From IMG/VR virus record IMGVR_UViG_3300021062_000016, positions 1 through 61,788 of that record: a DNA stretch of 61,788 bases. One strand, given 5' to 3'. Shown in pieces: positions 465-61,788 of this stretch; position 1 is the first letter of the stretch, and each line of letters starts with the position of its first letter. A model generated the notes under the pieces. The model saw nothing but the letters and a program-made list of their open reading frames with translations. It was not told the DNA's origin and made no database searches. This DNA comes from a virus. Taxonomy: Duplodnaviria > Caudoviricetes. The translations under genes were made by a program, and so were the position numbers.

Positions 465-654
465 GGAGTCGTGTGGATGACAACGGAGCCGGGCGGCGCG
501 CTACCAGACTGCGCCACGACACTTGCGTGTCGGCCGGATTTGAACCGGCGCAATGCTTGGGCATGACCCAAACACCCCGAGATGCGATGGGGCGCGACCC
601 CGCCACAGTTGCTCGGCTCCGCCATCGGCGTTCCGTTGTCATCTACACAACTCC
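465..654 (-). ncRNA. Circularly permuted tRNA-like RNA (YrlA/Y-RNA-like topology)
   Basis: Minus strand: T arm GCCGG-UUCAAAU-CCGGC, acceptor CGACAC-GCAA-GUGUCG, D arm GCGC-AGUCUGGUA-GCGC, enclosed by a 23-bp terminal stem (465-487/632-654). Confidence 0.7.
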
Positions 655-1038
655 GTCACAGCCCCTCCCCCAGCATGGGAGGGATGACTCATGGATGGCG
701 GGGCTGTCGCCGGGCTTACGCCCGGTAAGGGGCTGCCAATGGGTCGGTTCGGCAAAGGTGCCCGGATTGATCTTTGTGCTGTACCCCTCGCGGTCCCAGT
801 ACTCCCGGTCCCCGTCGCCGTTATCGACCCACAGGGAGACGTTCTCGCCTTTCTCCCCCTCGCGCTTGGTCCGGCAGTAGATGCGCTCAGGCATCGTCGC
901 CACGGGCTGCCAGCCCTCAGAAAGTGCGACACACGGGGCCGGATTCTCCTGGCCCGCTGCGGTCGATTTGGGGCCGGTGAGGGCGTCTAAGCCCTTGGCC
1001 TGTCTATTTGTGGAAGCCCTGCCGGGGTCGCCACTCAT
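643..1038 (-). CDS. DUF551-like protein; reading frame crosses attP, start uncertain
   Basis: WQPVATMP...EPTHWQPL motifs typical of DUF551. Confidence 0.55.
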   Translation of the reverse strand: MSGDPGRASTNRQAKGLDALTGPKSTAAGQENPAPCVALSEGWQPVATMPERIYCRTKREGEKGENVSLWVDNGDGDREYWDREGYSTKINPGTFAEPTHWQPLTGRKPGDSPAIHESSLPCWGRGCDGVV

Positions 1039-1096
1039 CGAAATAACCCTTTATTATCAACGGGTGCGACACATGGCGCGGGCCATGGTGCGACAC
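924..1096 (+). other. attP: core AGCCCTGCCGGGGTCGCCA (1015-1033) resembling a tRNA 3' end (tRNA-Arg-like), with arm-type repeats GTGCGACAC at 924, 1064, 1088
   Basis: T-stem/acceptor/CCA-like core directly downstream of the integrase operon; three identical 9-mers on both sides of the core. Confidence 0.75.
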
Positions 1097-1112: not shown

Positions 1113-1604
1113 TCACAGACGCACCCCGTGGATTGCGTGTCCCAAGGCGTCGGCCGCGGTCCTTATCGAAGCCTCGATATTCTCAAGCGTGGTGGCGAAC
1201 CACTCCCCCGCTCGTCGTGTTGCCGCCATCGCTTCGTGAGAGGCGGCCTCGATCTCCCGAGCGAAGACCATGTTCGCCACAGAGAAAGCCCGGTGAATCT
1301 CAAGCTTGCGCGGGTTGCCGTTCTGAAGGTTCCGCAAACGGCGCTCGACGTTGCGCGCAATGCCGACCTTGAAGGGACCATTCCTCCCGCCGATGCAGTA
1401 GACGTAAGCGCCGCGGCCTAGGCTTGGACGCTTCGCTGGTTGCAATTCGCCGCGCACAAACATCACGTGCAGGGCCTCGAACTCTGGCGTGCCCGGCTCA
1501 TGGCGGATGCGAATGCGCTGCTGCCCACGCTTGCGAAAATACAGCCGCTCATTGCCGTGGCGGTCGGTGTCGTGGGTCAAATATTTGTAGTTACGCTCGG
1601 CCAC
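1113..1604 (-). CDS. GIY-YIG (T5orf172-like) nuclease with integrase-like N-terminal domain
   Basis: YVYCIG..FKVGIA..RRLRNLQNGNP..E..H..GEWF; GTG at 1604 preceded by AAGGAGG; N-terminus aligns with the integrase N-terminus. Confidence 0.85.
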   Translation of the reverse strand: MAERNYKYLTHDTDRHGNERLYFRKRGQQRIRIRHEPGTPEFEALHVMFVRGELQPAKRPSLGRGAYVYCIGGRNGPFKVGIARNVERRLRNLQNGNPRKLEIHRAFSVANMVFAREIEAASHEAMAATRRAGEWFATTLENIEASIRTAADALGHAIHGVRL

Positions 1605-2640
1605 GCTTGGCCTCCTTGGGGGTTTGATCCAACAGTTTCGCCGCTTCCCCGGCCAGGCGTTTGCGGTCTGCCCTGCGGGTGTAGCTCGTTGCCTGCCCCG
1701 GTGAGGTCCATCCGAACAGCGCCATGAGCTGGCGATCTGACGCGCCTTCGTCGGCCGCAATCGTCGCCCCGGCTTTGCGGAGACCGTGAGCGGAGCAGTG
1801 AGTAAGCCCCGCCTCGTTGCACCGCTCGCGGAACCAGTTGCCAAACCCGGCGGGCGTGAAGGGCTTCCCAAAGGAGGTCAGGAGGTAATGCATCTTGCCG
1901 CGGTGAAGGTTTAGGACCGCCCGAAGGCTTGGCAGGATGGGAAGGTCGCGCGCCTTCAGTTGCTGGCTGTCGCCCTTTTTCTCGATCAGCCTCAGCCACC
2001 CGTCGCCGGCCTCCAGTTGCCGGCCAAGGCCAACCACGTCGGATCGGCGCACTCCCAGGTAAAGGAGCAGGGCCATTGCCAAGCCAGCCTTCGTGTGTGC
2101 GGGATGCCTCTCGCGGAACTGCTCGATCTCCGCAACCGTCCATGTGTGGTGCCCGTCGCTGGGGGCCTTGATCTTCGCTAGATCACGGGCGGGATTGTGC
2201 TTCATGTGCCCCGCTTCGACCGCCCAACCGAACATCACGCGAAGGGCTTTCAGGAGGTTATTGGCAGCGTGGGGAAAGCCAGCCTTCTCGTCTCTGATCT
2301 TGCGGACGTACTTTGGCTCCAGGTCATGGATCTGACCGCCACCCCACGTGGGAAGCGTGGCCTCGATCATGGAGCGGCGGATTTTCTGAGTAGCGCCGTC
2401 AAGGCGCTTAAATTCCGGGCTCTTGAAATACTCCATGGCGAGCCAACGGTAGGTGCCTGGGACAATCCTCGCCGCGGAAGGCGGTAAGGGGCGAGCAGCC
2501 AGGGCAGCCTTGTACTCGGTCATGAAGGCGTCGGTTCCGGGCGTCTCGCGCATCCTGATCCGCTGCCGGCCTCGCTTGCGGAAGTACACCCGCACGTTGC
2601 CGTGGCGGTCGGGTTCCTCGGACAGGTACTTGAGCTTCAT
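1591..2640 (-). CDS. int: Tyrosine integrase
   Basis: GVRRSD, HGLRK, LFGW...Y catalytic motifs. Confidence 0.95.
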   Translation of the reverse strand: MKLKYLSEEPDRHGNVRVYFRKRGRQRIRMRETPGTDAFMTEYKAALAARPLPPSAARIVPGTYRWLAMEYFKSPEFKRLDGATQKIRRSMIEATLPTWGGGQIHDLEPKYVRKIRDEKAGFPHAANNLLKALRVMFGWAVEAGHMKHNPARDLAKIKAPSDGHHTWTVAEIEQFRERHPAHTKAGLAMALLLYLGVRRSDVVGLGRQLEAGDGWLRLIEKKGDSQQLKARDLPILPSLRAVLNLHRGKMHYLLTSFGKPFTPAGFGNWFRERCNEAGLTHCSAHGLRKAGATIAADEGASDRQLMALFGWTSPGQATSYTRRADRKRLAGEAAKLLDQTPKEAKRGRA

Positions 2641-2942
2641 TTCCCCGCTGCCGTCCTTAAGGATGATTCGCATATGGCCTCCCAGGAATTGCCCCCGCCG
2701 CTATCAGGCAACGCCTCAAAGGCCAGTGTCAACTTACGGACGGACCATACCGACCGCCCGTCGATCTTCTTGGGTCCGGGCATACGCCCGTCCTCCACCA
2801 TTTCTAGGAACTTGGTGAGCGAAACCCCAATAAAGGCAGCCGCTTCCTCTCGGGAAATGCCGGCGGGAGGTAGGCTCTTGGGCAATACGTCGCCCTTCGG
2901 CCGGCGGCCATCCTGCGGAACGAGCTTCAGGGGTTGTGTCAT
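2637..2942 (-). CDS. Excisionase / AlpA-like HTH protein
   Basis: SREEAAAFIGVS..FLEMVEDGRMP..KKIDGRSVW; directly upstream of int. Confidence 0.8.
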   Translation of the reverse strand: MTQPLKLVPQDGRRPKGDVLPKSLPPAGISREEAAAFIGVSLTKFLEMVEDGRMPGPKKIDGRSVWSVRKLTLAFEALPDSGGGNSWEAICESSLRTAAGK

Positions 2943-3657: not shown

Positions 3658-3945
3658 TCATGGGGGCTGCGCCGATGCTTGCGCATCGGAAGGAAGAAGG
3701 CCTGGCAACGAGTGTGCAAACGGGCGGTCCTCGTTCTTTGCCAGCGCTGCGGTCCAATTCGCAGCCAATACCTTGGCGTCTCCGGTCGGCACTGCAAACA
3801 GCCTCACACCGTTGAACGTGCCCTCGACGTTGCAATTGAGCGTTTTCGCGAGCGCTACCATCTCACCGCACGCATCCTCAATCCTCGATCCGACCGCGAT
3901 GTCGATATCGAGCGTCAGTGTTTTGACCCGATTGCCGTAGACCAT
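3658..3945 (-). CDS. Hypothetical protein
   Basis: ORF in operon orientation. Confidence 0.6.
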   Translation of the reverse strand: MVYGNRVKTLTLDIDIAVGSRIEDACGEMVALAKTLNCNVEGTFNGVRLFAVPTGDAKVLAANWTAALAKNEDRPFAHSLPGLLPSDAQASAQPP

Positions 3946-4003
3946 TTCCCAATCCCTTTGTCTGTTACAGCGGCGCAAGCCGCCCTACTTACCTACTTAC
4001 CAA

Positions 4004-4501
4004 TCACGTAGAAGCGGAGACTGTTATCTTCTCCCCTCGACACACGCGCTCGAAGGCGTCGAGGACGACGGACTTGGGGACGGCCTCCGGTGGATACTTG
4101 GCAAACTCGGGTATGAGATCCCTTATCCGGTCTGGTTTCACTTCCTGCTCCAATCTTGAGAAAAACGGAGCGTTGCCCCAGAAGATTAGTGACCTCATCT
4201 CGCCATCCGGTGGAGACATCGCGAGCAGGCGGCTAAATTCATCGTCCGGATCAGAGTCTCTCGCGATGGAGAGATGGCCGGCGATGCAGCAGAAACACGC
4301 CGCTTTTGGCGAACGAACGCTGTCGAGAACACCCTCATCAGTCGTTCGGGCGTAGTAGTAGGGAAAATAGAACGTCTCCGCCGGGTACTGCTTCAACAGG
4401 TCCAACGCCTCCTGTTGATCGCGCGTAAGCGCGGGCTTCATTTCCTTCGGTGGGAACTCAATCACTTGATGTTCTGGTGATGTAGGGGAGAGGGGTTTCA
4501 T
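4004..4501 (-). CDS. Hypothetical protein (CFCCIAGH motif)
   Basis: 165-aa ORF in operon orientation. Confidence 0.65.
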   Translation of the reverse strand: MKPLSPTSPEHQVIEFPPKEMKPALTRDQQEALDLLKQYPAETFYFPYYYARTTDEGVLDSVRSPKAACFCCIAGHLSIARDSDPDDEFSRLLAMSPPDGEMRSLIFWGNAPFFSRLEQEVKPDRIRDLIPEFAKYPPEAVPKSVVLDAFERVCRGEKITVSAST

Positions 4502-4540
4502 GACCTGTGAATCCTTTATTGATGTTGGGCTTTGCGGGGC

Positions 4541-4951
4541 TTACGCCCCTTGCTTGGCAATGAATTTGTGCAGGTCGGGTTGAGCGACGACGTACTTGCT
4601 GCGCTTTGTGATTTTGTTGCCGTGCTTCGCGATGAGCGCCTTAGCCTTCTGACCTGCTAGCGCGAAGTCATCGCTGTCGCCCTGGGCGTGGCGAGCAACG
4701 ATGTCATCCCAATCCGCGAGCGCGTCGATTTCTGTGGCGCAGGCGACCGCGCGTTCCAGGTCGTCCCAATTTGATGGGAGGGCAAGCCCGGTTTGGTGGT
4801 GTGTAATGCGCCAGTGGTCGCCAGATTTACCGACGCCGCGATGGACGCAGAGCCGACCGACCATGATGCACGGCTCAGATGTCTTCAGGGTGCCATCGGA
4901 ACGCGCTATGTAGACTGTGGCGTCAAACTTCGCGTCCTCCTCACGCGCCAT
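4541..4951 (-). CDS. Hypothetical protein
   Basis: ORF; WRITHHQTG motif. Confidence 0.65.
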   Translation of the reverse strand: MAREEDAKFDATVYIARSDGTLKTSEPCIMVGRLCVHRGVGKSGDHWRITHHQTGLALPSNWDDLERAVACATEIDALADWDDIVARHAQGDSDDFALAGQKAKALIAKHGNKITKRSKYVVAQPDLHKFIAKQGA

Positions 4952-4990
4952 AAGGCGCGCCCCTTGGCCCTCATTCCCCATGATCCTCTC

Positions 4991-5176
4991 CTATGGTGTG
5001 GGTGGCTCTGGTAGCGGCATCCAATGGGTGGGGTCTGATACGGGGTCTCCTTCCTCGTCGATCCACCCATCGCCGCGCCATTCAGTCAGCCCGTAGACCT
5101 TACTGCGAGCCCAATAGCCGAGAATCTCAGTCCCATCCTTCGGCGCAGTCGAAATCGGTTTCCATCCCCCGCTCAT
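4991..5176 (-). CDS. DUF551 family protein
   Basis: WKPISTAPKDGTEIL...PTHWMPLPEPP. Confidence 0.85.
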   Translation of the reverse strand: MSGGWKPISTAPKDGTEILGYWARSKVYGLTEWRGDGWIDEEGDPVSDPTHWMPLPEPPTP

Positions 5177-5595
5177 TCTGTAGAGCCTCCCTGCTTCTCC
5201 TGGAGCTTTGCTTCGTAGCGTTTGCGAGCCGGGGATATCTCCCACAGCCTCTTGGCTATCGCCTTCATGTCGATGCCCCATTCCTTCTCGAAAGCAGGCT
5301 CGCCAATTTGGTGCTGGCGCTTATGCGCCAGGGAGCACAGGGGAATGGTGAATGAATCGGACGGCTTCAATGATGTCCCGCCATCGGTCCCGGTGCGGAC
5401 GTGGGCGGCTTCGATGATCCCCTCGCATTCGTGCTGGTAGCCGTTCCACCCGGCGTCACCCGTGCAGGCCCTTGGCTCTCTCCCTGCCAAACAGCACACA
5501 AACGAGCGAATGAACTTTAGGTGAGACGCACACCGTATCTGTGACGGCTCCCTCACATTCATCCGGGGGCGCTGGCGACGTTTGGGCAGGTTCAT
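5173..5595 (-). CDS. DUF968-like putative HNH nuclease
   Basis: HLKFIRSFVCC, AAHVR, KPSD..IPLC..H..QH. Confidence 0.75.
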   Translation of the reverse strand: MNLPKRRQRPRMNVREPSQIRCASHLKFIRSFVCCLAGREPRACTGDAGWNGYQHECEGIIEAAHVRTGTDGGTSLKPSDSFTIPLCSLAHKRQHQIGEPAFEKEWGIDMKAIAKRLWEISPARKRYEAKLQEKQGGSTE

Positions 5596-7449: not shown

Positions 7450-7821
7450 TCAGAAGGGCACAAGGTCCTCTTGGGCGGGCGCGGTCGAGGTCGTGGCCTT
7501 AACCTCGATTTCATCGTTCGTGATTTCGAGACCGCTGGTGCTCTCCAAGTCACGGTGCCGTTGCTGAGCTTCGTGCTCGTACTCGAACGTCTCGTTGACC
7601 TTGAGACCCCGGTACTCGCCGTGGAGGCGCCACACCTTCTTGGTCTCCGGTGCGGCGGGAACGCTGGCGGTCATCGAGTAGGACTCCATGCCGACCCGCA
7701 GCGCATTGCCGTCCTTATCGCGAATGACGACGTTCTTCAGCGAGCGGTCGCAGTAGTCGAGTCCGACCGTGACCCCGGACAACTTGATTTGCTCAGCAGA
7801 CTTGATCGTTTCCCATTTCAT
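7450..7821 (-). CDS. Hypothetical protein
   Basis: ORF with AAGGA RBS; C-terminal DLVPF. Confidence 0.6.
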   Translation of the reverse strand: MKWETIKSAEQIKLSGVTVGLDYCDRSLKNVVIRDKDGNALRVGMESYSMTASVPAAPETKKVWRLHGEYRGLKVNETFEYEHEAQQRHRDLESTSGLEITNDEIEVKATTSTAPAQEDLVPF

Positions 7822-7907
7822 TTTCGTTCCTTTCAGAAACAGCCCATAACAACCAGCCCAGATGCTCACCAACCCGAGGGTATCGAGGATGAAGGCCTTG
7901 GCGTCTG

Positions 7908-8201
7908 TCATGCGACATCCCGGTATCCAAGGATGTCGGCCAAGTGCTCGCGCTGTTCCTCAGGCGTCTTGTGCGAGAGTATCCAAGCGCGGGCCTTTTC
8001 CATCGACGCGGCGAAGGTGGGAGCCTCGAAGTCTTGTTTTGTCGCGTCGCCGAGCGTAATGCGGCAGCAAGCGTTTGGTTTGACGCCGGGCGTATAGTGC
8101 ATCCGATCGACAGAAACGTAGCTAGTCAGGCGGATGCCGCGCGCCATGCACTCTTGCCGAGCCCACTTCACGAAGTCGTCAATCTGCTGTTCCATTGTCA
8201 T
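7908..8201 (-). CDS. Hypothetical protein
   Basis: ORF in operon. Confidence 0.6.
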   Translation of the reverse strand: MTMEQQIDDFVKWARQECMARGIRLTSYVSVDRMHYTPGVKPNACCRITLGDATKQDFEAPTFAASMEKARAWILSHKTPEEQREHLADILGYRDVA

Positions 8202-8204
8202 GCC

Positions 8205-8489
8205 CTACTCCGCCGCCGCTACTTCACGCGCGTAAGCGCGCTTTCCATCCCTATAATCGTTGTCGTCCTCCAGATCCCTCATCCACCCTCTGACTGAATC
8301 CCCCAGGATGTCGTGCTCATGGGAGTTGATGAGGCTGCGGAACTCCTCCATCAGGTCGTCGGGGCTTTGCTTGAGCGTCTTGATTTCCAACAGGGCGCCG
8401 TAGACCTCGACCTTCATTTCCCTGAGATGTCTGGAAATGATTCTCTCTGCTGCGAGTAGGATGGCTTTGTCGTCAGAGGGGAGGTGCAT
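8205..8489 (-). CDS. Hypothetical protein
   Basis: ORF with AAGGAG RBS. Confidence 0.65.
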   Translation of the reverse strand: MHLPSDDKAILLAAERIISRHLREMKVEVYGALLEIKTLKQSPDDLMEEFRSLINSHEHDILGDSVRGWMRDLEDDNDYRDGKRAYAREVAAAE

Positions 8490-43791: not shown

Positions 43792-46700
43792 ATGCCCCTC
43801 CGTCCCCTGTCTTTCGACCCGTTCGAATCAAGCGAACAGGGAACGGCGATGCTGCGCCCGCTGGACTTCGATCCGTTTGAAGCGAAGGCAGCGCCGACGC
43901 TAAGACCACTCGACTTCGACCCCTTCGCGCGCAAGGGCCTGGACCAGATGCCGGGGGCGGGCATGGTGGGAGGCGGCGGCAAGCGTCTGACACCCGAAGA
44001 GGGCCTGGACCTTGCTCGTAGCATCCCCGCTGGCGCCGTTAAGGGTGTCGGCATGGCGGCCCGTGGTCTCGGCACCGCATATGAATCTGTCGGCCGCTCA
44101 CTCGCGCGCCCCGTTGAAGCCGGCCTACGTGCCGCAGGAATGGGCGATGTCGTAGACGCCCTCAACTCCAACACCCCCTGGTGGCTGCAACCTTCAGAAA
44201 TCCTCAAGCGGCCCGGCGAGCAAACCGTCAAAGCGGGCGAAGCTATTGGAGTGCCTGAAGAGCGCCGCACGATTGGCACCGACATTGGAGAGGGTGTTGG
44301 CCAGCTGGGCGGCCAGATCACCGCCGCTCTCCTCTCTGGCGGTGCTTCTGCAACATCATCCCTCGCCATGCTTTACGGCCAGGGCGTGGATCAGATGGAG
44401 CAGCTCCGAAAGGAGCACGCCCCTGATCGACAGGATGCCGTGACCGATACCGCCGTTCTCGGGGGAGGGGCGATCACCGCCCTGACCGAACGGTATGGCC
44501 TCGACAAAATCCTCAACCGTATCCCGCCCAAGATTAAGAACGCAGTCCTCCGTCAACTGGCTGATGTGTCGATCGCAGGAGGCATCGAAGCTGCCCAGGA
44601 AGTTGCCGAGAACGTCCTTCAGCGCCTGACCGCCATCGCCACCTTTGCCCCGGATGCCTCCGTACTCGAGGGCGCGGGCCGCGAAGCCATCGCTGCCGGC
44701 GGTGCGGGCGCCATCGCCCGCGGCCTTCTCAACACTGCACTCCCCGGCCGCCAACCAGCCCCCACCGAAAACGCGCCCCTCCCTGTCTCCCCCGAGATCC
44801 GCGCCCAGACCACCGCGGACGACATCAACTCCCCCATCCCCACCGAATTGATCGAGGGCGGTCGCCAGGTTGTCGCCGACGCCATGGGTAGCCGTCGCTC
44901 TCCTGTTCCTTCCACCGACCGCCCACAAGAAAGTGCGCCGAACGTCGGGGGACCGACGGCGCCGCCACCGGCGCTTGAGGCTTTGCCCCGCGCCGGTGGT
45001 CTCCCCTCAGCGCCAGTAGGCGCGCCCCCGGCAGAAGTCACGGCTCCGGCCGCGCAGCCGGGGGTTTCCGTTCAGCCCACAGAGGCCAGCAATGTCGAAC
45101 CTCGTGTTGATGGACAGCCACCGCCCGTCCGAAGCGGAACGCCTCCGCCGCCACAACCGATTGTTGGAGCGCCAGTACCTCAAGGCCCGCAACCAATCCC
45201 CGCCCCTGGCCCAACTGTTGCCCTTCCCGAAAGCGTGGGAGGGGATCAGCTCGTCACACGACAGGACGGAACACCCTGGGCTTCTGAAACCGACGCACGC
45301 ACGGCAAGAACCTCCCGACCGGACCTGAGAGGCAAGGCGTTCGAGCCGGTTCAGGTTGAGGGCGGGTGGGCCTTGCGGCCCCTGCCTGCGCCCCCGATTG
45401 AGATACCTGCCGCGCCCATTGGAACACTTAACCCGCCCATTGAGACAGTTAAGCAGCCGGTTGCCGAACCGCAAAAGGCACCGCCCCTCCGACGGCACGA
45501 AGGAAGCTGGGTGGTCGTCAAAAAGGGTACGCTCGAACCGGTCCTGGAGACCTTCGAGCAGAAGACCGCCGACGCGATCAACCGCGAGAAGTACGACGTT
45601 CTGACCGCGGGCGACTACCTTGGCCGCAAGAACCAGGAAATCAGGCAGCAGGACGCCGCCCGGCCGTCTGCCGAGCCAGCCTTCAGCCGCACCAACGCAC
45701 CCCCGCCGCCGGACACCAGGCTGGCGAACATCAGCCGCGGCAAGGACGCAATCGAGCGCGCCCTGAAGAACGAGGACGAACCCTACGCCGTCCACCGGAA
45801 GGACACGGGCTGGATTGGCGTGTACGCCAACAACATCGCGCATGCCATTCGTGAGCGCATGTCGGCGGTTAAGCAGCGGATGACCCGCGAACAAGCCGTC
45901 GCGATGATCAGGGAATTGCCGGTGGTCCTGGCCAACGGCCGCCTGGGGACGCCCTATACCCAAGACGGCAAGACCGTCTCCCGCAACATCAACTACAACG
46001 GCAAGACGGCAGTCCTGAGATTCGAGCGCTTCGGTGAACGGGAGACCTGGGTCGTCACCGCCTATCCAGGCATGCAACAGATGCCCATGACGGGCAAAAA
46101 GCTGTCTGAAGCCGAAGCGGAGAAGATGATCGCCGATGCGGTCACCCCGGGTTTTAAGCTCCGTGATGATGCTACGCAACCGGACCATCAAGCGGTCCTA
46201 CGTGCCCCGGTCTCCGAAGAGACTTCTGCCCCGAAGGGCAGCCCCAGTATTTCGACTGAGGCGGGTCCGGCTAACAGACCTCCCGTGAGGGAGCCCTCGG
46301 GCCGGTTGGGAGCGGCGACAGCCGATAATGTAGTCACAAAAACGCCCGAAAACAAGGCAGCCGAGAAAGACGAACCACAGCAACGCCTTGCCGAGCCTCG
46401 GGAATCCGCACCCGTCCTCACCGACGAACAGATCACCCAGGCCAAGGAAGAACTCCTCGCCGACCTCAAGCGCATGGACCCTTCCGGCCGTCTGGCCATG
46501 CGTCTGGTGAAGCAGATCAACAACGCCGTCACGGGACAGCAGGAGCCCAACGCCGACGGTCAATACTTCCGCCGGCTCATCGAGATCGCCCACCAGGCCA
46601 TCAAGGACAACCGGGGAAAGCACGTCCTCAATCACGAAGTCATCCACGCCCTGCGTGACCTAGGTCTGTTCACAGACTTCGAGTGGAGAGCCCTGGTACG

Positions 46701-49700
46701 GGCAGCCCGCAGCGACAAAGCCCTGATGGACAGGATCAACCGCACCTACAAGGACCTCCCCCTTGGAAAGCGGATGGAAGAAGCCGTCGCCGAACTGTTT
46801 GCACAGTGGAGCAACGGAAACCTTGAAGCCAAAGGCTTCCTGCGCACGGCGATGGAGAAGATCAAACTGGTGTGGGAGGCGCTGTCCAACCTTGCACTCG
46901 GCAACAGACTCACCACCGCCCGCGGCGTCATGCGCAAGGTGGAGAGCGGGGAGGTGGGCGCGAGGGAATCTCGCGAGACCCGCGACGCTGAACCCAGCTT
47001 CAGCCGCAGCGAGAAGCCTTTCTACTCCGCCCTGACCCGCGCCGCAGAGAAAGCCAAGGACTCCAAAGCCACCCCCGGCCAGTGGATGGGCATCCTCAAA
47101 AACTCCCCCGGCGTTAAGCAAGACGAACTTGACTGGTCCGGCATCCAAGAGTGGCTGAACACCCACGCCAAGCCCGTGACCAAAGAAGACCTGCTCGCCT
47201 TCCTCCGCGCCAACGAGGTGCAAGTGCAGGAGGTGGTGAAGGGCAACACCGCGAAGGACCGGAACGAAATCAAGAAGCAGATGCGCGAAATCATCAAGCG
47301 CAATGACAATCTTGGTTTCGATACAGTCGGCGAAGCCATCCAGGCGCTAATTGCCGAGCCTTCCAGGACGGCGGACGCCTGGGAATTTGGCGGCGACGAC
47401 GGGCAGAAAATGAACGCGCTGCTCGCCGACTATCACACCGAACTGAACAGCACGACCAAATTCCAGTCCTACACCCTCCCCGGCGGAGAGAACTACCGCG
47501 AGCTGCTGCTGACCTTGCCAACAAAAGGCGAGGGCGGGAAGCGGGTGCGCGTCTACACCAGCGACGGATTGAGCGCGGTGCAAACTATGACGGACGCTCA
47601 GATCGAGGGAATGCGCGAACGTGGCCGTCGCCGGTTTGAAGTGCTCGACACCGTCCATCCGCAGGGAACTTTTCAGCAGGGCCACTACGATGAAGCGAAC
47701 GTGGTCGCCCATATCCGCTTCAACGAACGCACCGACACCGATGGAAAGCGCGTGCTCTTCATCGAGGAAATCCAGTCCGACTGGCACCAGAAGGGGCGGA
47801 AGCAGGGGTATGCGAGCAAACGCACCATCGAGCAAATCGACGCTGACATTGACGCGGTATACGCAGAAGCCGAGCGGCGCGAACCCGGCATGGACCGCGA
47901 ATCAGCGGGTGGATGGCAGGCGGTGTGGGACACGCACCCCGACCTGAAAGTCCGCCACGATGCTCTCTTCCTTGAGCGCGGTCGCACCCAGGCAGGCGGT
48001 ATCCCCGACGCCCCCTTCAAGACCACCTGGCCCGAACTCGCCTTCAAGCGCGCCCTGAGATGGGCAGCGGAGAATGGATTCGACAGTGTGGCTTGGACAA
48101 CCGGCACGCAACAAGCGGAGAGGTACGACCTAAGCAAGCAGATCGGGCGCATTGAGTGGCAGCGCGAAGATGACGGCACGTATGAAGTTCGTGCGTATCA
48201 GGCTGAGGATGTGCGTCGCGGCGAGGGCTCGCTGATCGACAAGCGCGGCATGTCGCCGGAAGCTGTCGCGGACACCATCGGCAAAGAGCTTGCTGATCGC
48301 ATCGTCAACAGTGCGGATACTCACGGCACGATCAAGGGCGAGGGCCTCCGTGTCGGCGGCGAGGGCATGAAGGGCTTCTACGACCAGATTCTCCCCGCCT
48401 TCGCCAACAAGTACGGCAAGAAGTGGGGGGCGAGGGTTGGGACAACGAATCTAGATGTCTCCGGCCTGTATCAAACCGCCCCAGACCTTGCCGAGCTGGA
48501 AGCGGAAGACGCCGAGCAACAGGCCATCATAGACAGCGGCAAAAAACACAAAACCGCCACCGCGACCGTCCACTCCCTCCCTATCACCCCCCACATGCGC
48601 GCGAGCGTCATGGAGGGCCAGCCGATGTTCAGCCGGCGCGTCCCCGAAGTGAAGGAACGGGACACCCCGCCCCGCCGCTCCGACGGCACCTACGCTTCCC
48701 CCACCGACCCCAACTACAAAGCCCCCAAGGGAACCCCTACCCAGCAGAGGGCGGTGAACAAGGCCATCTCCGCCGACAAGCCCGGCGGCCTGTGGGCCCG
48801 CACCCGCGAGACCTACGACACCATCCGCAACACCATCAAAGACGAGATTATCTGGGCCACGGCGGATGAGTTCTACGGTCAGCGCAAGCTGGGCAAGCAC
48901 ATCATGCCCAAGAGCGCGGATACGGACCTTGCGGCGTGGATGGCTGCCGGCATGGCAAGACATTCCGCTGGACAAATCGAAGCCTTCCTGCGTCATGGGG
49001 CTCCGAAGTGGAACGGCGATGACGCCGTTCTCGAGCAGGACAAGGAGACATCACCCGGCTTCTACGAGATCGTCGCCCCCCTGTACGAAAAAGGCCTGGA
49101 CCGTCTCTTCGAAGGCTATGCGTATGCACGTCGTGTGAAGACCCAGAACCTTATCGAGGACGGGCGCGAGCACAACATCACGGCTGAAGAACGTGACTCC
49201 CTCGTCGCCCTCGAAAACGAGTTCCCCGAGTTCAAGCGCATCTTCAACCAAATCCAGACCTTCAAGAAAGCTGTGTTGGATGCAGCCCAGGACATGGGCC
49301 TGATCGACAAGGAGCAGCGGAAGGTTTGGGAGCAGGCGGACCACGTTCCGTTCTACCGGGTGGCGGAGGAGGAAGACTCCAGCGCAGGACCGTTCCGCAA
49401 GAAGGGCCTCGCCGGTCAGTCTCCCCAGATCGGCCGGCTCACCGGCGGCGAAGAACGCTTCGTCGTCTTCAATCCCGAAGGCGAAGTGGTCTCCCGCCAC
49501 GAGACCAAGAGCGCAGCCAATCTGGAAGCGAAGAAACTGGGCAAGGGCCACACCGTCGAGTCCGCCGGCCAACCCATCGTTGGAATCATCGAGAACCTCG
49601 TTAAGAACTTCTCCCACCTGATCGACGCCAGCATGAAGAACTACGCGGCGGTGCTGGCAGTTGACGACGCTCTGCAAGTCGGGATCGCCGAAAAGGTGGG

Positions 49701-51495
49701 CATGGAGCACACCCAGGCTCTGGTTCCCCGTGCCGTCATGGCAAAAGCCCTGGGCCTGGATCCGAAGCAGGAAGACGGGATTGAGGCAGTAGCTGCGATC
49801 AAGAGCCCCGTCCGCCCGGACAACGACGTCATCTCTATTCGTCGTGACGGGAAGGTGGAGTTCTACCGGATCAAGGACAAGCTTCTGTACCGCGGCGTTG
49901 CCGGACTCCATCGCGCTGCGATGTCTTGGTGGACCAAGCCCCTTGTGAAGCTGAAGAACATCTTCACCCGGAGCATCACGGCCACCCCCGCCTTCATGGC
50001 GCGCAACTTCTTCCGTGACTCCCAGTCTGCCTGGTTGCAGACGCCCGAACGTGGCTACAACGTGCTGAGCGAGATGGCCAAGAGCGTCAAAGCCCTCGGC
50101 ACGCGCCTGGACGACCCCCGCGTGAAAGCCATCATGGCTGCGGGTGGAGACACGGGTTGGTACCAGAACGCCCCCGAAGACGTGGTGAAGCAGCTGCGTC
50201 AAATGGAAGCGGACGGCAAAGCAACCCTCATCGGCCTGGCAGACGTCCGCAAATGGTGGCGCACCTGGGAGCGAATTGGCCGGGCGTCGGAAATCGCCAA
50301 CCGCGTTGTGACCTATGATGCCACCCTGAAAGCCTCTGGCTCCAAACGCAAAGCCGCCTTTGCCGCCGCGGACCTGCTCGACTTCCAACGTCGTGGGGGA
50401 GCCGAGTGGATGCAGTTCCTGACGGCTGTTACCCCGTTCCTGAACGCCAGAATCCAGGGCCTCTATAAACTTGGCAGATTGGCGACCGCCGGCGACAAAC
50501 AAGCCCGCAAGGCTCTGCTCACCAAGGCCGGTATGATGATTGCGTTCTCCACCACCCTTGCGATCCTCAATGCTGGAGACGACGAAGACGACGGCTACAA
50601 CGACCTTCCAGAGTACGTGAAGGACGGAAGCTGGGTCATCAACCTGAAGCGCATGGGAATTGAAGGCGAGGGGGTTCCCCGCTTCATCCTGATCCCCAAA
50701 CCCTTCGAGCTCGGCGTCCTGCTTGGAACCGTGCCCGAGCGCGCCGTTCAACTGATTGCAGGAAACGACCGCGCCAAAGACACGTGGGATGCCCTGGAGA
50801 GAACGGTTGTCGATACCTTCTCCATCAACCCGCTTGGGAATCCCTTGGTGAAGGAAACCGTGGAGCAGTGGGCCAACCGGGACTTCTTCACCGGCAGACC
50901 CATTGTGAACCAGACCCTGCAATTCCTTCCCCCGGAACAGCAGTACGACAGCGGCACGAGCGAAACCGCGAAAGGGCTGGGCAAGATGTTTGATGCTTCC
51001 CCCGCCAGAATCGAACACGCCATCCGTGGATTCACCGGTGACATGGGCATGTTTGCCGTTGCCGTGGCCGACGCCATCATGCGCGGCACGGGTATGAGCC
51101 CTCAGTTGCCGAGCGAGCGCATAGACGAGATGCCCGTGGTCAAATCCTTCATCCGCCAAGATCCAGCCCGTAACTCCAAGTGGGTGGAGCGCTTCTACGA
51201 CATCCGCAACGAAGCGGAGGAAGTCGTCAGGGGCATGAATGCAAGCAGGAAGGCCGGTGACCTGGAAGGAGCCCGTGAACTCCGCGACGAGAACCGCGGC
51301 CTTCTCCGTGTCCGCAAGGAACTGGATGACCGTGCAGACACCATGGCTGCCCTCAACAAGCAGTCCCGCGAGATCAAGGTCAGGGATGATTTGACCCCCG
51401 ACGAGAAGCGCCGCCGCCTTGATGCAATCACCCGGCGCCGAAACGAAATCGCCAAAGCCGGCGCCCAGAGAGCCGAGACCGCTTCCGAGCGGTAA
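43792..51495 (+). CDS. Large polyvalent ejection protein (BECR-like nuclease, zincin HExxH, LPD38-like C-terminus)
   Basis: 2567 aa; IAH..WVVTAY; NHEVIH..EEAVAE; IEEIQSDWHQ; PFLNARIQG, IPKPFELG, NRDFFTGRPI. Confidence 0.85.
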   Translation: MPLRPLSFDPFESSEQGTAMLRPLDFDPFEAKAAPTLRPLDFDPFARKGLDQMPGAGMVGGGGKRLTPEEGLDLARSIPAGAVKGVGMAARGLGTAYESVGRSLARPVEAGLRAAGMGDVVDALNSNTPWWLQPSEILKRPGEQTVKAGEAIGVPEERRTIGTDIGEGVGQLGGQITAALLSGGASATSSLAMLYGQGVDQMEQLRKEHAPDRQDAVTDTAVLGGGAITALTERYGLDKILNRIPPKIKNAVLRQLADVSIAGGIEAAQEVAENVLQRLTAIATFAPDASVLEGAGREAIAAGGAGAIARGLLNTALPGRQPAPTENAPLPVSPEIRAQTTADDINSPIPTELIEGGRQVVADAMGSRRSPVPSTDRPQESAPNVGGPTAPPPALEALPRAGGLPSAPVGAPPAEVTAPAAQPGVSVQPTEASNVEPRVDGQPPPVRSGTPPPPQPIVGAPVPQGPQPIPAPGPTVALPESVGGDQLVTRQDGTPWASETDARTARTSRPDLRGKAFEPVQVEGGWALRPLPAPPIEIPAAPIGTLNPPIETVKQPVAEPQKAPPLRRHEGSWVVVKKGTLEPVLETFEQKTADAINREKYDVLTAGDYLGRKNQEIRQQDAARPSAEPAFSRTNAPPPPDTRLANISRGKDAIERALKNEDEPYAVHRKDTGWIGVYANNIAHAIRERMSAVKQRMTREQAVAMIRELPVVLANGRLGTPYTQDGKTVSRNINYNGKTAVLRFERFGERETWVVTAYPGMQQMPMTGKKLSEAEAEKMIADAVTPGFKLRDDATQPDHQAVLRAPVSEETSAPKGSPSISTEAGPANRPPVREPSGRLGAATADNVVTKTPENKAAEKDEPQQRLAEPRESAPVLTDEQITQAKEELLADLKRMDPSGRLAMRLVKQINNAVTGQQEPNADGQYFRRLIEIAHQAIKDNRGKHVLNHEVIHALRDLGLFTDFEWRALVRAARSDKALMDRINRTYKDLPLGKRMEEAVAELFAQWSNGNLEAKGFLRTAMEKIKLVWEALSNLALGNRLTTARGVMRKVESGEVGARESRETRDAEPSFSRSEKPFYSALTRAAEKAKDSKATPGQWMGILKNSPGVKQDELDWSGIQEWLNTHAKPVTKEDLLAFLRANEVQVQEVVKGNTAKDRNEIKKQMREIIKRNDNLGFDTVGEAIQALIAEPSRTADAWEFGGDDGQKMNALLADYHTELNSTTKFQSYTLPGGENYRELLLTLPTKGEGGKRVRVYTSDGLSAVQTMTDAQIEGMRERGRRRFEVLDTVHPQGTFQQGHYDEANVVAHIRFNERTDTDGKRVLFIEEIQSDWHQKGRKQGYASKRTIEQIDADIDAVYAEAERREPGMDRESAGGWQAVWDTHPDLKVRHDALFLERGRTQAGGIPDAPFKTTWPELAFKRALRWAAENGFDSVAWTTGTQQAERYDLSKQIGRIEWQREDDGTYEVRAYQAEDVRRGEGSLIDKRGMSPEAVADTIGKELADRIVNSADTHGTIKGEGLRVGGEGMKGFYDQILPAFANKYGKKWGARVGTTNLDVSGLYQTAPDLAELEAEDAEQQAIIDSGKKHKTATATVHSLPITPHMRASVMEGQPMFSRRVPEVKERDTPPRRSDGTYASPTDPNYKAPKGTPTQQRAVNKAISADKPGGLWARTRETYDTIRNTIKDEIIWATADEFYGQRKLGKHIMPKSADTDLAAWMAAGMARHSAGQIEAFLRHGAPKWNGDDAVLEQDKETSPGFYEIVAPLYEKGLDRLFEGYAYARRVKTQNLIEDGREHNITAEERDSLVALENEFPEFKRIFNQIQTFKKAVLDAAQDMGLIDKEQRKVWEQADHVPFYRVAEEEDSSAGPFRKKGLAGQSPQIGRLTGGEERFVVFNPEGEVVSRHETKSAANLEAKKLGKGHTVESAGQPIVGIIENLVKNFSHLIDASMKNYAAVLAVDDALQVGIAEKVGMEHTQALVPRAVMAKALGLDPKQEDGIEAVAAIKSPVRPDNDVISIRRDGKVEFYRIKDKLLYRGVAGLHRAAMSWWTKPLVKLKNIFTRSITATPAFMARNFFRDSQSAWLQTPERGYNVLSEMAKSVKALGTRLDDPRVKAIMAAGGDTGWYQNAPEDVVKQLRQMEADGKATLIGLADVRKWWRTWERIGRASEIANRVVTYDATLKASGSKRKAAFAAADLLDFQRRGGAEWMQFLTAVTPFLNARIQGLYKLGRLATAGDKQARKALLTKAGMMIAFSTTLAILNAGDDEDDGYNDLPEYVKDGSWVINLKRMGIEGEGVPRFILIPKPFELGVLLGTVPERAVQLIAGNDRAKDTWDALERTVVDTFSINPLGNPLVKETVEQWANRDFFTGRPIVNQTLQFLPPEQQYDSGTSETAKGLGKMFDASPARIEHAIRGFTGDMGMFAVAVADAIMRGTGMSPQLPSERIDEMPVVKSFIRQDPARNSKWVERFYDIRNEAEEVVRGMNASRKAGDLEGARELRDENRGLLRVRKELDDRADTMAALNKQSREIKVRDDLTPDEKRRRLDAITRRRNEIAKAGAQRAETASER

Positions 51496-61598: not shown

Positions 61599-61662
61599 GA
61601 TGGAATCCTATATGGGGGTAGTGGGCCAAGGGGCGCGGCTTAGGCCGCTGGGGTCGGGCATC

Positions 61663-61788
61663 GCAGACGCTTGCGAAGCTCAATGAGGTCCGGCGGCATC
61701 CGGTCGTAAAGCTTGCACCATTCGGCCATTGTTTCTTCCGGGGCATCCGGGGCGAGCGCAACGACAACATCGTCTATGCGCCAGAACA
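61663..61788. repeat. Terminal direct repeat, right copy
   Basis: Identical to 20-145. Confidence 0.95.

Follow-up and report, generated by a model that had tools for sequence, protein, structure and literature searches.

The gene at positions 1113 to 1604 (minus strand) of the window, by which we mean the whole 61,788-bp stretch of viral DNA that was analysed, encodes a protein in which an N-terminal domain of the type that opens the neighbouring tyrosine integrase is followed by a nuclease domain of the MUG113/T5orf172 kind. From comparison of sequences, we give an even chance to the reading that this protein is a free-standing, homing-type T5orf172 endonuclease (GIY-YIG superfamily) aimed at integrase arm sites. 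The window is an entire IMG/VR virus record with a CheckV completeness of 100% and is classed as linear in IMG/VR. A direct repeat of 145 nt is present at both record ends (1–145 and 61644–61788, 96% identical), and positions 43792–51495 on the plus strand hold a very long ORF (2567 aa).

On the minus strand, the Xis-like gene is followed by the tyrosine integrase gene (int), the nuclease gene and then three copies of GTGCGACAC (Table 1). The longest int ORF begins at 2673 and encodes 360 aa. Its product matched the Pfam families Phage_integrase (E = 1.2e-11, residues 183–336) and Phage_int_M (E = 7.6e-6, residues 78–166), as well as the phrog_1 integrase (E = 5e-35). The small gene upstream of int matched phrog_25900, a transcriptional regulator (E = 2e-11), and phrog_66, an excisionase/regulator (E = 0.001); a Pfam search with this gene gave no match at E ≤ 0.01. 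At 2637–2640, an ATGA joins the stop of the Xis-like gene to the likely integrase start M12, an arrangement that points to xis, int and the nuclease gene being translated as one coupled unit.

Table 1. Coordinates of the int–nuclease region of the window, with the arm-like repeats of four related loci
Feature	Position	Strand	Basis or remark
Two-domain nuclease gene (P0001), 163 aa, GTG start	1113..1604	-	Translation, Pfam, alignment of homologues, AlphaFold2
N-terminal domain of integrase type, residues ~5–55 of P0001	1440..1592	-	BLASTP against integrase; conservation; predicted structure
MUG113/T5orf172 GIY-YIG nuclease domain, residues ~63–155 of P0001	1140..1418	-	Pfam; conservation; fold match
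Ribosome-binding site AAGGAGG	1611..1617	-	6 nt before GTG, within int 3' end; read from sequence
Tyrosine integrase (int)	1591..2640	-	Likely start M12 of 360-aa ORF; ATG overlaps upstream stop (ATGA)
Integrase N-terminal domain, homologous to nuclease N-domain	2494..2640	-	BLASTP; two-domain profile
Xis-like or regulator-like small gene, upstream of int	2637..2942	-	PHROG matches
Proximal arm-like repeat GGTGCGACAC	1087..1096	+	16 nt from nuclease stop codon
Second proximal arm-like repeat GGTGCGACAC	1063..1072	+	24 nt spacing from first
Distal arm-like repeat AGTGCGACAC	923..932	+	140 nt from second repeat
L201 repeat GGTGCGACA	nuclease-gene 3' end		3 copies
L215 repeat GGTG(A/G)GACA	nuclease-gene 3' end		4 copies
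L200 repeat GGTTAGACA	between int and nuclease gene		3 copies
L074 repeat GGTTAGACA	between int and nuclease gene		2 copies

The nuclease gene starts with GTG at 1604–1602 and ends with the stop codon at 1113–1115. An earlier, sequence-only reading of this DNA had assigned the gene its own ribosome-binding site, an overlap with the int stop and a distance of 16 bp to the nearest arm repeat, and each of these assignments was borne out: the AAGGAGG lies 6 nt upstream of the GTG, the ORF overlaps the int stop codon (1591–1593) by 14 nt, and 16 nt separate its own stop codon from the GTGCGACAC copy at 1088–1096. An AlphaFold2 model of the whole protein, built with 51 homologues, had a mean pLDDT of 94.8 and consisted of three strands and a helix (residues 9–50), a short linker and an alpha/beta domain. 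The 163-aa protein had no match in NCBIfam, and domain searches found no winged-helix/HTH domain of the excisionase or recombination directionality factor type in it.

The C-terminal domain, which the same reading had called a T5orf172-like GIY-YIG domain, scored above the cut-offs of both MUG113 (PF13455; 48.6 bits, cut-off 22.3, E = 1.2e-12, residues 78–148) and T5orf172 (PF10544; 37.2 bits, cut-off 20, E = 4.5e-9, residues 67–148). The generic GIY-YIG family PF01541 scored 14.3 bits, below its cut-off of 22.6. Seven residues, Y69, K79, G81, R89, E119, E134 and W135, were invariant in 51 homologues, E134 lying within a GEWF motif. Y69, R89 and E134 are the putative active-site Tyr, Arg and Glu of a GIY-YIG nuclease. 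The best PDB fold match of the whole model was Slx1 (6seh_C), with a probability of 1.00 but an E-value of 0.08 and a TM-score of 0.44 by query; the other GIY-YIG entries, 1zg2 and 1ywl, matched more weakly than Slx1.

Residues 3–42 of the nuclease aligned with residues 11–50 of the 360-aa integrase with 25 of 40 positions identical (63%, BLASTP E = 1e-14), which upholds the close N-terminal match first noticed in the sequence-only reading. A profile of the two-domain family also gave a second match in the window, at 2467–2640 (E = 3.6e-18), which is the integrase N-terminus. Identity of the corresponding DNA stretches was only 73% over 99 nt (1489–1587 against 2534–2632), and the two N-terminal domains are therefore homologous rather than a fresh duplicate. 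R15, G17, R20, R24 and F42 were each shared by no fewer than 90% of the 51 two-domain homologues. The sequence-only reading had made its proposal depend on a conserved N-terminal segment, and the domain was indeed retained across these 51 diverged proteins.

In predicted models the N-terminal domain has strands at residues 9–13, 19–23 and 31–33 and a helix at 40–50. Modelled alone, it had a pLDDT of 82.7, and its best match in BFVD was the predicted structure of an integrase family protein (probability 1.00, rmsd 1.6 over 45 columns, E = 0.017). In the PDB, Foldseek paired this domain with no integrase arm-binding domain; all matches had chemokine-like topologies and E > 0.2. Searching PDB sequences with a profile gave no match below E = 0.5, and the Pfam Arm-DNA-bind family did not match in the domain. 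As no solved structure matched, the presumed arm-binding role rests on position and on the repeats. With respect to position, the domain stands N-terminal of Phage_int_M and Phage_integrase in Int. It is common at integrase N-termini, its carriers including alphaproteobacterial records by the record titles of a genome scan.

Homologues of the whole protein were collected with an exhaustive phmmer search, which returned 4764 proteins at E ≤ 0.001, of which 82 reached E ≤ 1e-10. A search for the two-domain architecture had been recommended by the sequence-only reading; apart from the query, 52 of the best 150 representatives aligned over both domains, and 51 of these 52 entered the conservation alignment. 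Ten representatives that we looked up were mostly singletons from metagenome assemblies, the sole name among them being 'predicted GIY-YIG superfamily endonuclease'. The nearest ESM Atlas clusters were MUG113/T5orf172 proteins, mostly viral. A word-based homologue search recovered the query itself only. With tblastn, 19 of 50,697 phage records matched, none with both domains (18 with the C-terminal domain and 1 with an integrase N-terminus), and 18 of 72,556 plasmid records matched, again none with both domains. When 401 genomes from a single order were searched with a profile, with 8 candidates scored in each genome, 6 matches at E ≤ 1e-20 were obtained, all to the C-terminal domain only.

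Scans with the N-terminal motif alone found 140 relatives in viral sequences (80 kept), 21 in genomes and at least 518 in metagenomes (80 kept), and in each set almost all were integrases. When the two-domain profile was run over 195 loci from these motif scans, L074 was the sole match. IMG/VR was also scanned with a degenerate DNA pattern for DRHG, K.G and GEWF at their observed spacings, a pattern that does not require an integrase. Thirteen matches were obtained, 7 of them with a complete two-domain ORF. The other six (L197, L202 and L204–L207) were rejected, the 'DRHG' codons having arisen by chance, with in-frame stops or no N-terminal domain. T5orf172-only genes devoid of the integrase-type domain were seen at L229 (2253–2792, plus strand) and L237 (5117–5626, minus strand), in both cases within ~1 kb of related integrases that have no two-domain gene.

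Linkage to int had been put forward as a test of the proposal, and it was found throughout: a tyrosine integrase gene lies upstream on the same strand in all eight viral contigs with a two-domain gene, the window included. The two genes overlap in half of these contigs (the window, L201, L208 and L215), are separated by ~70–240 nt in L217, L200 and L074, and by ~1 kb in L216. The fusion recurs beside integrases that are 23–47% identical to each other. In L217 the integrase at 3857–4966 (plus strand) has a different type of N-terminal domain and is followed by the two-domain nuclease at 5035–5589 (plus strand), a pairing that looks mismatched and may reflect a recent move. In L074, five tRNA genes (Gln, Gln, Asn, Trp and Pro) lie at 7775–8207 on the minus strand, 1.5 kb past the nuclease gene.

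We then considered the repeats. Exact GTGCGACAC occurs three times in 61,788 bp, each time on the plus strand and all within 173 bp (924, 1064 and 1088). When one mismatch was allowed, 14 copies were found against 20 expected genome-wide, which is no enrichment, and the 11 inexact copies were scattered; the distinctive trait of the motif is the clustering of its exact copies. Clusters of GGTNNGACA touch the ends of the nuclease gene in the window, L201, L215, L200 and L074, and a one-off variant lies at the nuclease-gene end in L208. As the repeats of L200 and L074 stand between int and the nuclease gene, the latter is located beyond the repeat cluster in these two loci. No GGTNNGACA cluster was found near the nuclease gene of L216 or L217.

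Repeats of this type were also present where the nuclease gene is missing. Among 83 nuclease-free loci with the same integrase type and at least 400 bp of downstream sequence, 19 carried at least two GGTNNGACA copies in the zone from −150 to +1200 relative to the int end, mostly on the strand opposite int. With a background of 0.17 copies per kb, about 2 of the 83 loci would be expected by hand calculation. The exact motif pair of the window recurs in the nuclease-free locus L137, where the copies stand at +7 and +29, immediately past the int stop; in the window, it is the nuclease stop that precedes them, and they stand at +17 and +41. The L208 lineage has its repeats in the stretch from int to a tRNA-Arg 3' end, and those of L208 and L251 are 30–100 bp from the tRNA att core, which is where arm sites beside an att core would be expected. 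These sequence comparisons support the view that, across many related phages, the repeats may act as arm-type sites.

No attP core was identified in the window. The sequence-only reading had implied a tRNA attachment site, and the candidate, an ARAGORN 'tRNA-Pro' at 525–607, was rejected: it has no Rfam tRNA match and sits within a larger structured RNA. The 'same tRNA site' part of its suggestion that the protein cuts the attP of rival phages finds no support in the window. The structured RNA candidate extends over 465–654 on the minus strand (MFE −115.2 kcal/mol, z = −5.25), and none of 200 shuffled sequences folded as well. A 23-nt inverted repeat (465–487 and 632–654, 91% complementary) closes its multi-branch fold, which includes T-arm-like and D-arm-like hairpins. 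A partial match to the Rfam YrlA (Y RNA-like) family was found at 498–550, with 33 bits (E = 1e-4) against a gathering score of 69; no TROVE/Ro protein is encoded in the 61,788-bp window. Just past the distal repeat, a small ORF of 84 aa (643–897, minus strand) gave a weak DUF551 match that was below the cut-off (E = 0.005), and the 3' end of this ORF overlaps the stem of the structured RNA.

Presence and absence of the gene were compared in the L201, L215 and L208 lineages, which are also the source of the cassette boundaries given here, the window phage not being among them. Neither the window integrase nor that of L200 has a close relative in IMG/VR, the best match of the former being 49% identical. 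In all three lineages, close relatives with integrases 84–99% identical do not have the nuclease gene, and the gene is a cassette of ~0.5 kb inside the 3' end of int. The left junctions lie ~5 bp (L201), 11–13 bp (L215) and 1 bp (L208) before the first repeat.

The L201 comparison was made with the largest set of relatives. Its integrase has 10 relatives that are 68–97% identical, and all 10 are without the nuclease gene. Between L201 and L226, homology of 92.7% extends into the int 3' end, where 550 bp stand in place of 71 bp, and then resumes. The empty genomes of this lineage have TGTCTCACC 5 bp past the junction, after which come another repeat, the stop codon of int and a further two repeats, the repeat positions being −99, −80/−76, +26 and +75. 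Since distant L201 relatives also have no such gene, insertion is more parsimonious than repeated loss. In the second lineage, L215 has 581 bp where L244, with an 84% identical integrase, has 109 bp, and the first repeat begins ~11–13 bp past the junction. In the third, the nuclease gene of L208 is absent from L250–L252 (integrases 95–99% identical), with the junction 1 bp before ATGTCTAACC...GGTTAGACA. L251 runs from int straight into the repeats and then into the tRNA-Arg 3' end with no nuclease gene; the L250 and L252 sequences end at the int stop. The last integrase residues replaced by the insertion were read off in two lineages, ~35 in L225 and ~15 in L249, and in L225 the new stop of int and the nuclease start share an ATGA. 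Of the three roles that the sequence-only reading had entertained, homing fits best with these patterns of presence and absence and with junctions that adjoin the repeats in every lineage compared.

The source of the N-terminal domain was examined in six pairs of nuclease and neighbouring integrase. Identity between the nuclease N-terminal domain and that of its own integrase was 0.38–0.56. In all six pairs this exceeded the median identity to other integrases; the cognate domain ranked 27, 43, 9, 42, 1 and 32 of 138, so that it came first once, and cognate domains were only modestly more alike than non-cognate ones. The possibility that each genome's nuclease recently took its domain from the int beside it was considered and is not borne out by these ranks. 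For the window nuclease, integrases of other phages were closer than its own, which ranked 27 of 138 in an integrase set that had been picked for likeness to P0001; the earlier description of the segment as a copy of the integrase domain thus holds for homology (E = 1e-14) and is overstated as to copying. In a quick tree of 190 N-terminal domains, 27 changes between nuclease and integrase labels were counted versus 50.4 ± 2.5 for shuffled labels, indicating that the nuclease domains are neither randomly placed nor a single clade. These sequences would be explained best by a single ancient fusion that then diverged, with some exchange.

In the homing reading, the N-terminal domain would bind GGTG(C/A/G)GACA-type repeats at the int 3' end, the presumed arm-type sites of attP, with GTGTCGCACC as the repeat sequence in the presumed target DNA. 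In phages without the gene, the nuclease domain, held on a linker of ~10 residues, would cut the DNA a few bp from the first repeat, on the side facing int, and repair from a gene-carrying genome would copy the ~0.5-kb cassette into the cut spot. Nuclease-carrying genomes keep most of their repeats, so self-cutting would have to be avoided, and replacement of the cut site could provide self-immunity. As a side effect, the insertion replaces the ~15–35 C-terminal residues of the integrase noted for L249 and L225 and couples nuclease translation to int. We infer DNA binding, cleavage, the cut position and immunity by cut-site replacement. In a wider form that we hold more tentatively, falling somewhat short of an even chance, selfish cassettes of this kind would specialise in the int–attP junction of temperate alphaproteobacterial-type phages; upon insertion they would recast the C-terminal tail of the integrase and be co-translated with int, and in this way may alter integration or bar rivals from a shared att site. 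Because such a cassette would carry the integrase's own arm-site reader, its target would be a sequence that the phage cannot afford to lose.

The most serious competing explanation, which we nevertheless consider unlikely, is that the nuclease acts like Odn of phage ICP1 as a weapon, destroying att regions in competing temperate phages or satellites with the same integrase family and so protecting the carrier phage or lysogen. The architecture is the same as in Odn, a T5orf172 domain with a DNA-binding domain common to the protein of another element, and a weak match to the candidate defence family PDC-S57 was obtained (E = 4e-4). The repeat motif is common to many unrelated phages, so one nuclease could strike many rivals, but the carrier holds the same repeats and no target element was identified. 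In L208 the gene lies at the prophage end, adjoining att. Precise repeat-adjoining junctions are predicted by homing and are superfluous for a weapon. A protein could nevertheless have both roles.

A role as an accessory or regulator of recombination appears less probable still. The protein would then compete with Int or assist it at arm sites, for example in the balance between integration and excision, and the GIY-YIG-like domain would serve as a binding module or nickase. Translational coupling to int through the 14-nt overlap, the retention of residues that are conserved in integrase N-terminal domains, and the constant order of int upstream and nuclease gene downstream in 8 of 8 contigs are all consistent with such a role. 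However, the gene is dispensable, as judged from the relatives with 84–99% identical integrases that do without it in 3 of 3 lineages, and the residues to be expected in a catalytically active GIY-YIG domain do not vary among the aligned homologues. Control of directionality, one of the roles suggested by the sequence-only reading, is unlikely to be essential for the same reason, and a separate Xis-like gene is present at 2637–2942. Finally, the int–att junction is a common place for accessory genes and T5orf172-only genes also lie near related integrases (L229 and L237), but ordinary cargo at a recombination-prone spot, that is, a T5orf172 gene fused by chance to a duplicated piece of int and having an N-terminal domain with no targeting role, is improbable given the conservation of that domain across 51 diverged homologues with a confidently predicted fold, the recurrence of the fusion with integrases 23–47% identical to each other, and the repeat-adjoining junctions in 3 of 3 lineages.

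If the homing reading is true, a nuclease reads the arm sites of an integrase and colonises the 3' end of that integrase's own gene, and selfish nucleases would thereby be tied, in a testable manner, to how the int–att module evolves. It would also open a comparative route to the arm-type sites of an uncharacterised integrase family, here GGTNNGACA, and the protein would be a compact natural pairing of a putative DNA reader of ~50 residues with a nuclease of ~90 residues.

Several known systems can be compared with this arrangement. Tyrosine integrases of the lambda type have an arm-binding domain at the extreme N-terminus. The domain described here resembles it in standing N-terminal to the core-binding domain, in its predicted three strands and helix, and in the repeats beside int; it differs in having no sequence, Foldseek or Pfam match to arm-binding domains. 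In I-TevI and the free-standing Seg proteins, GIY-YIG endonucleases of phage T4, a tethered DNA-binding domain binds one place and the nuclease cuts nearby, and the T4 seg genes spread without an intron, the gene being inserted at or beside its target. In contrast to I-TevI and Seg, the binding domain comes first here (the order is reversed), the nuclease belongs to another subfamily, and the target is a presumed recombination site of a temperate phage rather than a gene of a lytic phage. The architecture of I-TevI is also described in the available part of a preprint on phage T5orf172 genes (bioRxiv 10.1101/2023.03.23.533998).

That preprint, in the part available, treats the T5orf172 genes of ICP1-like and T5-like phages as modular homing endonucleases, and reports that 200 of 229 surveyed T5orf172 genes carry CapR, DUF723 or DUF4397 zinc-finger domains and a few carry RepA_N (bioRxiv 10.1101/2023.03.23.533998). 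The cassettes studied here share with those genes the nuclease domain, the modular DNA-binding parts and a sporadic distribution among related phages, whereas no integrase-type domain is named in the same part of the text (bioRxiv 10.1101/2023.03.23.533998). In the libraries searched, we found no paper that connects T5orf172/GIY-YIG nucleases in such a way to attP or to arm-type sites.

The closest parallel is Odn (Gp88) of Vibrio phage ICP1, a T5orf172 nuclease with an N-terminal domain 42% identical to the RepA_N of the PLE satellite, which is termed an origin-directed nuclease in a section heading of the source, as far as its accessible text goes (PMC8263062). In Odn, according to the same sections, a borrowed N-terminal DNA-binding domain, thought to give specificity, precedes a C-terminal T5orf172 domain (PMC8263062). 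P0001 shows this order too, with a presumed DNA-binding domain at its N-terminus. P0001 likewise has the make-up of a chimeric nuclease as outlined there, T5orf172 joined to a presumed DNA-binding domain of a mobile element, the identity being 63% over 40 residues as compared to 42% for Odn. On that account, the domain of Odn comes from a satellite replication initiator and targets an origin, whereas here it is of the integrase N-terminal type and would be directed at presumed arm-type att sites in phages like its carrier; the gene described here is a cassette within the target cluster. Exchange of DNA-binding modules is known among homing endonucleases. The novelty lies in the choice of reader domain and target, which, if the homing reading is true, would extend the idea behind Odn to site-specific recombination.
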